Shown piece by piece: positions 12,708 to 15,510 of a stretch of 20,000 bases of DNA. Each line of letters begins with the position of its first letter. Within the stretch, counting starts at the first letter, position 1. Source of the stretch: Myxococcota bacterium. GTDB lineage: Bacteria > Myxococcota > Myxococcia > Myxococcales > Myxococcaceae. The notes beneath the pieces are model-generated. The model was not told the DNA's origin, searched no databases, and worked only from the letters and a program-made list of their open reading frames with translations. A program made the position numbers and the translations under genes. The stretch lies in assembly GCA_049322255.1 (NCBI GenBank), contig JBMORE010000157.1:46539-66538 (forward strand), read 5' to 3'.

Positions 12708-13904
12708 ATGCGAAACGTGCTCGCCGCTCTCCTCGCCGCCGTCAGCTTGACCTCGTGGCACGCCTCCGCTCAAGAGGGCGAGGAGGAGGCGCCCGCAGAA
12801 GAAGAGGCCCCGGCCGCCGAAACCGAGGGCGCCGAAGTGGTGGACCAAGGCGACCAAGTGCGCACGACGGGCAGGGAAGCCGCTCCGGGCGAGGTGCACA
12901 CCGTGGTGCGGGGCGACACCCTGTGGGACCTCTCGCAGCGCTACCTGGGCAGCCCCTGGTACTGGCCGAAGGTCTGGTCCTACAACCCGGAGATCGCCAA
13001 CCCGCACTGGATCTACCCGGGCAACCAGGTGCGCTTCTTCCCGTCCGGCGAAGAGGTGCCGACCCAAGTCGAGGTGGGCGAAGGGCCCGAGGTAGGTGAG
13101 GAAGTGGAGGCGGCGGAGCTGATCCCCGAGGACACCGAGGGCGTGCAGGTGGCGGGGAAGATTAGCTACAAGCCCCCCAGCACCACGCGGCTGACCGAGA
13201 TCGGCTTCGTCACCTCCAAGGAGCTCGACGAGACGGGGAAGATCGCCGGCTCCTTCGCCGAGTCGCAGATGCTCGCCTTCCCCGACAAGGTCTACCTCCA
13301 GTTCCGCCGCCAGAGCGACGCGCGGGTGGGCGATCGCTACGTGGTGTTCCGCACCCTCAAAGACGTGGAGCACCCGGTGACCGGCGCCAACGTCGGCTAC
13401 CTCACTCAGTTCTTGGGCGCGGTGCGCGTCACCGAGCTGTCCAACCGGCTCATCACCGCGCAGATCACCGACTCGTGGGACGAAATTTCCCGCGGCGACC
13501 TCATCGGCCCCTTCGGCGAGCAGATTGGCAAGCCGGTTTCTCCGCGCCCCAACGAGAAGGAGATGAAGGGGTACGTGGTGGAGGCGCTGATTCCGCACCT
13601 GACCATGGTGGGCGAGCACCACCAGGTGATCATCGATAAGGGCAGCGCCGACGGAGTGCTCCCGGGTAACACCTTCACCGTGGTGCGCCAGAATGACGGG
13701 GTGGCGGGCGACTTCATTCACCCGTCGGAGAACGACGAGGACTACCCGGTGGAGGACATCGCCACCTGCATGGCGATCGAGGTGAAGGATCGCGCCACCA
13801 CCTGCTTGATGCTCCGCTCGCTGCGCGAGGTGGTGGGCGGCGATCGAGTGGTGATGCGCGTGGGCGGCAGTGGCGCGCGCCCGGCCCAGGCGTCGATTCA
13901 CTGA
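12708..13904 (+). CDS. tsaP: LysM-domain protein, TsaP-like (type IV pilus secretin-associated)
   Basis: AGGAG RBS, signal peptide (ASA/Q), acidic linker, LysM HTVVRGDTLWDLSQRYLGSPWYWPKVWSYNPEIANPHWIYPG, C-terminal beta domain (IIDKGSADGV.PG). Position upstream of dprA is typical of tsaP. Confidence 0.78.
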   Translation: MRNVLAALLAAVSLTSWHASAQEGEEEAPAEEEAPAAETEGAEVVDQGDQVRTTGREAAPGEVHTVVRGDTLWDLSQRYLGSPWYWPKVWSYNPEIANPHWIYPGNQVRFFPSGEEVPTQVEVGEGPEVGEEVEAAELIPEDTEGVQVAGKISYKPPSTTRLTEIGFVTSKELDETGKIAGSFAESQMLAFPDKVYLQFRRQSDARVGDRYVVFRTLKDVEHPVTGANVGYLTQFLGAVRVTELSNRLITAQITDSWDEISRGDLIGPFGEQIGKPVSPRPNEKEMKGYVVEALIPHLTMVGEHHQVIIDKGSADGVLPGNTFTVVRQNDGVAGDFIHPSENDEDYPVEDIATCMAIEVKDRATTCLMLRSLREVVGGDRVVMRVGGSGARPAQASIH

Positions 13905-13927
13905 CTTCGGCGGTCGGCCTGGCCCGA

Positions 13928-14246
13928 AAGGGTGGGAACGCGAGGGCTCTGGCGCACCGGCAACATCGTCGAGCCCCGCGTTTTCGGGCGCCGTGACTCT
14001 GGCCCCCCTGGGGTTCTCTTTGCGGGTCTCCGATTTTCGGGAATTCGCTATTACCCTCGGCGCTCGTAACCCTGCGAAAGTTTGTCATCCATCCGCTGCG
14101 GAAACGCTCAAAACGCTCCGATCTGGTAACGGCGATTACCCGGAATTCAGAAGGGGCGAAACAGGACCCCAGGGGGGCCGCAGCGCCCGAAGACGTGGGG
14201 CTCGCTCTCGGTGCTTCCGCGCCGGAGCCCTCGCGTTCTCACTCTT
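13928..14246 (+). ncRNA. Candidate structured RNA: ~320-nt imperfect rod-like hairpin, family unassigned
   Basis: Nested stems: 13928-13955/14219-14246 (28 bp, 3 G-U), 13970-13991/14183-14204 (22 bp, 2 G-U), 14001-14017/14163-14179 (17 bp, 1 G-U), 14032-14041/14139-14148 and 14045-14055/14125-14135 (each with one mismatch). The inverted repeat is directly visible; transcription is inferred. Confidence 0.55.
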
Positions 14247-14262
14247 ACAAGCCGCGCCTACC

Positions 14263-14291
14263 TTGACCAGCCGAGGGGCCGCATTTATAGG
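14263..14291 (+). promoter_or_regulatory. Possible sigma70-type promoter for dprA-topA
   Basis: TTGACC (14263-14268), 17-nt spacer, TATAGG (14286-14291); the -10 lacks the conserved final T. Confidence 0.35.
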
Positions 14292-14382
14292 AACGCCCCC
14301 TTTCGTGTCGGACCCCACCTCTATATACGCGTGGCGTGCTGCAAGAGGCCCACGGGGCGAGGCGGAAAGGGAGGCGACGGGT

Positions 14383-15510
14383 ATGGCTTCTGGGTTGAAC
14401 CACATCGAGGGTGAACGGCGAACGGTGCTCGGGCTGTGGGCGGTGCCTGGCGTTGGCTCCAAGTCGATCGCCGCCATCCAAACGACGTTCGAGGACCTGG
14501 CAAGCCTCGCCGACGTCTACCCACATGAATGGCTCAGAAAGGTCGACCTTCCCGAGCAGGCGCGGCGGGCGTTGGCCTCGGCCCCCAAGCCGGGAGTGTT
14601 GGCCGACCGCGCCGTGGAGCGTTGTCTTTCCGCGGGCATCTCCATCGCCTTCCAAGGGGACGAGGCCTACCCTTCGCGCCTGGCCGAGGTGGGCGATGCG
14701 CCGCCGCTCCTTTTCTACAAGGGTCGCGTCGGCCCTCCTCGCCGCCGGCTCGCGCTCGTCGGCACCCGCCGGCCTGACATGACCACCTCCAAGTGGGCGC
14801 GCGAGTTCGCGCAGAGGGTCGCTGCCAAAGGCCTTGGGGTGGTGTCGGGCGCGGCGGACGGCATCGACCAGCAGTGCCACCTGGGCGCTCTCGACGTCGG
14901 TGGCGAGACGTGGGCGTTCCTCGGTTCGGCGCTCGATGAGATCGACCCCTCGCAGAAGCGGCTGTGGCGATGGGTGGAGGCGGGTGGCGGAGTGTACTTC
15001 AGCGAGCTGCCCCCCGGAGTGAGGGCAGACCGATCGACCTTCCCGCGGCGAAACCGGCTCATCTCCGGCGCGGCGGACGCGGTGGTGATTCTGCGTGCGC
15101 CGGAGGGCTCGGGCGCTCTGTACACCGCCGAGTATGCCGAAGCACAGGGGCGGCCGATTCTGGTAGTGCCCGGTGACGTCAGCAACGACAGCACCCGTGG
15201 AGGCAATGCCTGGCTGCGTGCCGGCCGGGCCACCGCGTGCCTCGACGTGGGCGATGCGCTCGCCGCCGTCGGCATGGACCGAGCCCTCTCCGGCCCTCCG
15301 CCCAAGCCCACCGCTCCCCGGGTGGACGTGGACTCCCTCTCTGCCAGCGCCCAGGCCGCGCTCCGGGTCGTCGACCGGACGCCGCGCGGCTTCGAAGAGC
15401 TGCTCTTGGCCAGCCGGGTGGAGTCGGGAACCTTGAGCAGCGCGTTGTGCGAGTTAGAGCTGTTGGGGCTTGTCGTGCAGCACCCGGGCAAGCGATACGA
15501 ACGGCTATAA
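14383..15510 (+). CDS. dprA: DNA-processing protein DprA (Smf)
   Basis: AGGGAGG RBS then ATG 14383. Motifs YPSRLAEV.DAPPLLFYKG, ALVGTR, VVSGAADGID...H.GAL, FPRRNRLISG, SGALYTA, VPG, and a C-terminal winged helix (LCELELLGLV). Confidence 0.95.
   Translation: MASGLNHIEGERRTVLGLWAVPGVGSKSIAAIQTTFEDLASLADVYPHEWLRKVDLPEQARRALASAPKPGVLADRAVERCLSAGISIAFQGDEAYPSRLAEVGDAPPLLFYKGRVGPPRRRLALVGTRRPDMTTSKWAREFAQRVAAKGLGVVSGAADGIDQQCHLGALDVGGETWAFLGSALDEIDPSQKRLWRWVEAGGGVYFSELPPGVRADRSTFPRRNRLISGAADAVVILRAPEGSGALYTAEYAEAQGRPILVVPGDVSNDSTRGGNAWLRAGRATACLDVGDALAAVGMDRALSGPPPKPTAPRVDVDSLSASAQAALRVVDRTPRGFEELLLASRVESGTLSSALCELELLGLVVQHPGKRYERL

Follow-up and report, generated by a model that had tools for sequence, protein, structure and literature searches.

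MITEs are less than 500 bp long, with terminal repeats of about 4-30 bp and fading duplications; stable stem-loop transcripts, truncated copies and, for some transcripts, cleavage by RNase III are described for them in the available part of PMC10969869. Tagged REPs and TIR families mobilised by RAYT/TIRYT are described in the available part of PMC3733652. For IS91, oriIS/terIS ends with a target 5'-CTTG or GTTC, the lack of a duplication and the presence of subterminal palindromes only are given in the accessible portion of PMC13181058. In the myxococcal retron ncRNA (Mx162 type), a long inner hairpin is flanked by inverted repeats on the outside (PMC6868368, available part), and 6S RNA (RF00013) has a rod-like fold.

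The sequence between tsaP and dprA is closest to the MITEs. Like ERIC, Correia/NEMIS, RUP, QMITE and Chunjie, as described in the available parts of PMC10969869 and PMC3733652, it is non-coding, shorter than 500 bp, bounded by terminal repeats, intergenic and able to form a stem-loop; as with MITEs, full-length copies occur beside truncated ones and one copy adjoins an IS insertion. It differs from these named families, which were compared by description, in having four copies only, a GC content of 63.6%, nested inner repeats over most of its length and no partner IS found. It shares extragenic palindromes and a repeat-rich host genome with REPs and REPINs, but it is ten times longer than a REP; membership in this group was rejected, as neither a GTAG/CGTC tag nor a Y1 transposase (RAYT gene, PF01797) is present. 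We consider that it is probably a low-copy, aged, non-autonomous palindromic MITE-like element, so far confined to this lineage.

The window, i.e. the whole stretch of 20,000 nucleotides that was analysed, belongs to a genome of 4.85 Mb in 196 contigs that is 99.6% complete. In this window, the gap from the tsaP stop (13904) to the dprA start (14383) is 478 nt. The tsaP product matches the M. xanthus TsaP chain 3jc8_Ta (E 6e-123), and topA was assigned via Pfam. The element, of about 326 bp, lies 23 nt past the tsaP stop, on the sense strand. The features of the locus are the following:

12708..13904, + strand: tsaP, left flanking gene
13924..14249, unstranded: whole element, with bounds from its similarity to the full-length paralogue C178:30469-30806 (blastn and pairwise alignment)
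13928..13955, + strand: left terminal inverted repeat, outer stem of 28 bp with 3 G-U, also in the full copy on C178
13970..13991, + strand: left arm of the second stem, 22 bp with 2 G-U (MFE)
14001-14017/14163-14179: third stem, 17 bp with 1 G-U (MFE), closing the core
14001..14179, unstranded: core of about 180 nt, common to all four copies (nhmmer, covariance model, alignment)
14004..14056, + strand: left inner arm, the best conserved sequence, with CTTTGCG at 14018 and ATTACCC at 14050
14057..14119, unstranded: apical region, diverged in sequence and fixed in length (ATTACCC-GATC spacing)
14120..14148, + strand: right inner arm motif GATCNGGTAA... (four-copy alignment)
14183..14204, - strand: right arm of the second stem, recognisable too in the truncated copy C178:50718-50952
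14219..14246, - strand: right terminal inverted repeat, followed by A-CA, which gives TA at 14246-14247
14263..14291, + strand: host dprA promoter-like site (TTGACC, 17 nt, TATAGG), outside the element and just downstream of it
14383..15510, + strand: dprA, right flanking gene (Pfam)

The long fold-back at 13928-14246 is real. The nested structure with long stems described in the initial annotation was recovered, with MFE helices of 28, 22 and 17 bp followed by shorter inner helices, and so was its count for the three long stems, six G-U and no A-C, for which a two-sided binomial test considered by itself gives p = 0.03. Folding against shuffled sequences, as that annotation had proposed, showed that both strands are far more stable than chance (+ strand: MFE -200.9 kcal/mol, z -11.8, 0/100 shuffles as stable; - strand: MFE -181.5, z -9.7). 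Two finer elements of the proposed structure are present as sequences but not as helices: the 7-bp pairing of GCACCGG (13954-13960) with TCGGTGC (14208-14214) is not in the MFE, and the GNRA hairpin GCGGAAACGC (14098-14107) is neither used by the MFE nor kept in the other copies.

The initial annotation could not match the fold to tRNA, tmRNA, RNase P or SRP. The Rfam search gave no hit at gathering score over the window, with two chance hits at E <=10 in 13850-14450, and likewise no real match on the other copies. ARAGORN gave no match. The suggestion of an extended 6S-like RNA was abandoned; the fold is rod-like and its core is of similar length to 6S RNA, but RF00013 is not matched even at E 10 and the 6S RNA of this genome is encoded elsewhere (C54:86578-86713, 55.7 bits vs a cut-off of 46.4). 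This 6S RNA is short, at 136 nt for a model of 187 positions, its apical stem is truncated, and the gene downstream of it is presumably a 5-formyl-THF cyclo-ligase. A peptide-coding element was rejected in turn: one frame is open in three copies, the substitutions are even over codon positions in all six frames, and a Pfam search of the open frame gave no match. The dprA frame is itself open upstream: starting with a GTG at 13870 (window 13870-15510), it runs through all of the element, without a codon bias indicative of coding.

The search for extra genomic copies by BLASTN that had been suggested revealed three further copies, so that the genome holds four (blastn, nhmmer, covariance model), located at unrelated intergenic sites with unrelated genes alongside. 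Indeed (i) a full-length paralogue (C178:30468-30808), 74% identical over 341 columns (blastn E 8e-50), has a 3-hydroxyacyl-CoA dehydrogenase gene (hbd) and a small membrane gene as neighbours, (ii) a core-only copy (C178:50718-50952) neighbours a fatty acid hydroxylase gene and another small membrane gene, and (iii) a second core-only copy (C69:16134-16314) neighbours an ISKra4 fragment. Profile and covariance-model searches of the genome found no fifth copy. The terminal inverted repeats measure 28 bp in the window copy and 37 bp in the full copy on C178, and both full copies sit just upstream of sigma70-type motifs, at 13 nt (dprA) and 5 nt (hbd). The reading of the core as the right end of an ISKra4 element was rejected, since none of 31 related transposase loci has the core, each stopping at a terminal repeat of its own; at C69, the IS ends before the core. 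The ISKra4-family element directly left of this core copy (L034:6380-7125) has an internal deletion; both its terminal repeats are present, as is a 9-bp near-duplication.

A 32-kb contig, assembled separately from the probable source run, covers the stretch with 0 differences; that run does not count as an independent sample. A scaffolding artefact is excluded by this contig. At 31.6, it has the same depth as the contig that carries the full-length paralogue (32.8), which gives no sign of collapsed extra copies. The contigs of two other runs of the study do not span the stretch.

Extraction of the intergenic region from relatives, with a covariation test, was another check proposed in the initial annotation; among the four copies, the covariation term is near zero. 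In 17 of 29 relative loci (BLAST in 40 relatives), tsaP and dprA are about 35-271 nt apart and the element is absent; of the other loci, 2 contain inserted genes and 1 a different element, 1 is unmeasurable and 8 lack one of the genes. As 478 nt minus about 325 leaves about 150 nt, a typical gap of the relatives, the fold-back is, judging from these comparisons, an insertion of about 325 bp into a gap that is short in relatives. The second copy is found in none of the 24 orthologous hbd upstream regions of relatives. The nearest relatives compared all belong to other genera (TsaP <=62% identical), so that the comparison is one between genera. One relative (G024, C770:2055-2955) carries in the same tsaP-dprA gap an unrelated inverted-repeat element of about 700 bp, with a terminal stem of about 55 bp; with 40 of the 143 candidates scored, at least 54 matches to it lie on 25 contigs of G024, and there are none in the genome of the window.

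Wider searches, which lose anything below about 65-70% identity, returned no homologue: none by BLAST in 40 relatives; none in 207 family genomes, where one 46-nt match in G148 was judged to be chance; six matches of 24-40 nt in 350 order genomes, none of them inside a comparable fold-back; 0/150 family genomes with the covariance model (strict filters, 16 candidates per genome scored); and, for patterns with three mismatches, 0/400 phylum genomes and no true match in the 207 family genomes, in which terminal-repeat matches were at the level of the control (13 vs 9). Exact patterns gave no true match in public genome, metagenome and viral contig collections, nor did blastn in plasmid and phage collections. 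Two single matches lack any structure around them: one in L041 (Bacteroides), and one in a Holophagae MAG (L098:2684-2709), where 26 nt agree exactly with the C178 copy in its right terminal repeat, with no partner arm nearby, probably by chance. A terminal-repeat look-alike at C53:140143 is isolated and has three mismatches. A published description of the element was not found in a search that left subscription journals largely outside its scope, a weak negative. The sequence is apparently undescribed among the collections searched.

Of the options offered in the initial annotation, the third, a non-autonomous mobile element, fits best, given the four dispersed copies and the short gap in relatives. 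The element has the size, the non-coding sequence, the terminal repeats and the dispersed copies, absent from orthologous sites of family relatives, of a MITE. The MITE-like reading would imply that a transposase recognising the terminal repeats copied the element in trans and is now lost or unassembled, the simplest guess being an enzyme of the TA-duplicating IS630/Tc1 type, that two copies later lost their outer arms, and that copies survived where they had landed between the end of a gene and the next promoter. The rod fold would then be a by-product of the inverted repeats; RNA reading through from tsaP would form a long duplex, and RNase III cleavage or stabilisation of the 3' end could follow as a secondary effect. 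If so, this is one more lineage-specific MITE-like repeat and matters little.

The ends are less clear. Many copies with target-site duplications had been named as the mark of a MITE; four copies were found, but TA lies directly outside both terminal repeats only in the full copy on C178, the window copy having TA at the right only. Both full copies also share CCGA further left and CA further right, which counts against independent TA insertions, because such insertions would not give shared flanks. As far as their sequence goes, the ends could be explained by a TA duplication, now decayed, at a strict target, or by asymmetry in the absence of any duplication. An autonomous element with the same ends was not found in the 196 contigs; these ends were detected on none of the transposase or reverse transcriptase loci of the genome, and no terminal-repeat match was detected at 476 contig or gap ends. 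Y1/RAYT (PF01797), IS66, IS630, TnpB and IS110 had no match in the genome, which carries two IS91-like Y2 remnants, one rve gene, one ISKra4 fragment and two group II intron RT fragments. The presence of only four copies, the lack of an autonomous partner and the shared junction bases thus count against the MITE reading.

Paired columns are better conserved than unpaired ones (167/207 vs 74/118, p = 0.0006), a core block of 148 nt is free of gaps in three copies despite 37-53 differences, the distance from ATTACCC to GATC is 70, 70, 70 and 71 nt across the four copies, and the left inner arms are identical in 29-32 of 35 columns among three copies vs 24-26 for the right arms. The conservation of the stems, the gap-free core and the conservation of the left arm all point to a constraint past neutral decay. 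Any one of three things would explain these features: binding sites for proteins set at a fixed distance, a structured RNA, or gene conversion among the copies. Compensatory change between copies is little. Counting the flanks, the window copy has 120 long-range pairs; in the paralogue, 76 of them are kept unchanged, 15 are kept with one change and 7 with two (3 of these 7 in the flanks), 19 are broken and 3 fall on gaps; between the two full copies, 4 sites changed in both arms together vs 8 that are side-specific.

Among the alternatives, the one that survives best, though we consider it unlikely, is a lineage-specific family of paralogous structured ncRNAs with a core of about 180 nt, probably encoded on the strand opposite to that initially proposed, which duplication would have spread and selection kept. 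The fixed geometry of the core and the better conservation of the stems are in line with it, as are the conserved side-specific mismatches at columns 141, 147 and 163, which are G-U on the - strand, the four-copy consensus fold, which is better on the - strand (-47.1, 49 pairs) than on the + strand (-41.35, 41 pairs), and the double change of 11 of the 49 consensus pairs in at least one copy. Against these stand a covariation term near zero (0.25 kcal/mol), the absence of the element from every relative searched, the favoured strand, which differs between the two full copies, and the fold of the C69 copy, which is no better than shuffles (z about -1). At the window copy, a promoter/terminator scan gave no promoter call and no terminator-like site. 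A conserved structured sRNA was rejected on the lack of homologues in relatives (0/150 family, 0/400 phylum) and on the same covariation term.

The G-U asymmetry had been taken to show selection on a + strand RNA. This claim is not supported: the full-length paralogue is biased the other way, the consensus folds better on the - strand and relatives do without the element. A strand-neutral comparison of arms counts 8 isolated G-T mismatches and 1 A-C for the window copy, against 1 and 5 for the full paralogue in the same orientation (Fisher p = 0.011); over all aligned columns, the G-T/A-C counts of the four copies are 10/4, 7/12, 5/6 and 3/7. The leading or non-transcribed strand gains G and T through transitions. 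The strand-balanced GC skew is +0.075 for C157, -0.036 for C178 and -0.042 for C69, and in three of the four copies the G-T side coincides with the G-rich strand, whereas the neutral C178:50718-50952 does not fit. A control for mutation bias on 199 short hairpins of another family gave the same lean but a weak one (10 G-T/4 A-C vs 2/3). The G-U bias most likely reflects strand-biased mutation; selection on the fold of a read-through mRNA might still act at the window copy, whose G-U strand is the tsaP-dprA sense strand. As a caution, an excess of G-U over A-C in one palindrome may track the strand bias of the genome and is, alone, no proof of an RNA.

Next comes the doubtful possibility of an undescribed small mobile element whose asymmetric core of fixed geometry (148 nt free of gaps, conserved left arm) would be a functional structured RNA or ssDNA, and which would move through a single-stranded intermediate without target duplication, at the shared CCGA/CA junctions, and settle a few bases upstream of sigma70-type promoters. 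In that case, an unknown mobiliser would have placed a small structured element next to promoters of competence and metabolic genes.

Less favoured again, and distinctly unlikely, is a non-autonomous element moved as ssDNA by an HUH enzyme (IS91-like Y2 or REP/IS200-like Y1); its ends would be asymmetric, the target would not be duplicated and the rod would be an ssDNA hairpin. The asymmetric junctions shared by both full copies (CCGA left, CA right), without a clear duplication, recall IS91, and the CAAG that follows the window copy reads on the other strand as 5'-CTTG, the IS91 target; the paralogue, the other full copy, has CATG in its place. Folds computed with DNA parameters are strong for three copies. 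The two Y2 loci of the genome would supply an enzyme family, but they show no match to the element or its core model, and long terminal inverted repeats, such as the element has, are not an IS91 feature according to the available part of PMC13181058. A Y1 enzyme is no better placed, as no Y1/RAYT gene was found in the genome and neither GTAG nor CGTC was read at the ends of the element.

It is very unlikely that the fold-back is a cis-acting RNA that arose at this locus and uncouples tsaP from dprA-topA via RNase III cleavage. Its sense-strand position, 23 nt beyond the tsaP stop, and its long-stem mismatches, all G-U, would suit such a role, and RNase III processing is reported for MITE-containing transcripts in the available part of PMC10969869. 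The three other copies lie at unrelated loci, however, relatives manage without the element, and dprA has its own promoter-like motif downstream. This motif (TTGACC-17-TATAGG at 14263-14291) scores under the threshold of the consensus promoter scan; by eye, CTTGAC occurs in 12 of the 17 short tsaP-dprA gaps of relatives, and TTGAC near the hbd start in 21 of 24 relatives. With this conserved promoter-like motif of its own downstream of the element, dprA would not need RNase III uncoupling. An RNase III effect in cis is possible as a side effect of the insertion, on the model above.

A retro-transposed, msDNA-like relic of a retron, an origin reportedly proposed for repeats in Nannocystis exedens, is most improbable: the core of 176-180 nt is near the 162-nt msDNA of Mx162, the outer inverted repeats enclose a long inner hairpin and the genome contains reverse transcriptase fragments, but both RT hits read, from their translations, as group II intron maturase fragments, no RT lies beside any copy, the symmetric internal loops leave no room for an msr, and no sequence or model match was found, nor any match to 20 RT upstream regions of relatives (mainly retron-like) or to 30 further RT loci. 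Upstream of the retron-type RTs of relatives (L188-L206), msr-msd sequences of at least two distinct types occur, whose long hairpins are near-perfect.

Several other repeats and mobile elements were encountered. A degraded tyrosine integrase and an IS91-like Y2 transposase are encoded at L044 (C116:3522-6815), followed by sequence that, by eye, we take to resemble integron attC-like sites. In G155, an inverted repeat pair of about 280 bp (C88; L154:196-465 and 1889-2170) shows 65% identity between arms about 1.4 kb apart. Other palindromic repeat families of the genome include a short CCCTCTCCC...GGGAGAGGG hairpin family with 202 motif hits, an element of about 140-150 bp with tandem CGGGAG arms with 36 motif hits, and small families of A/T-richer palindromes of 82-91 bp (C185:29649-29739, C174:14817-14903, C27:1716-1804, C29:12758-12839 and C195:6498-6585).
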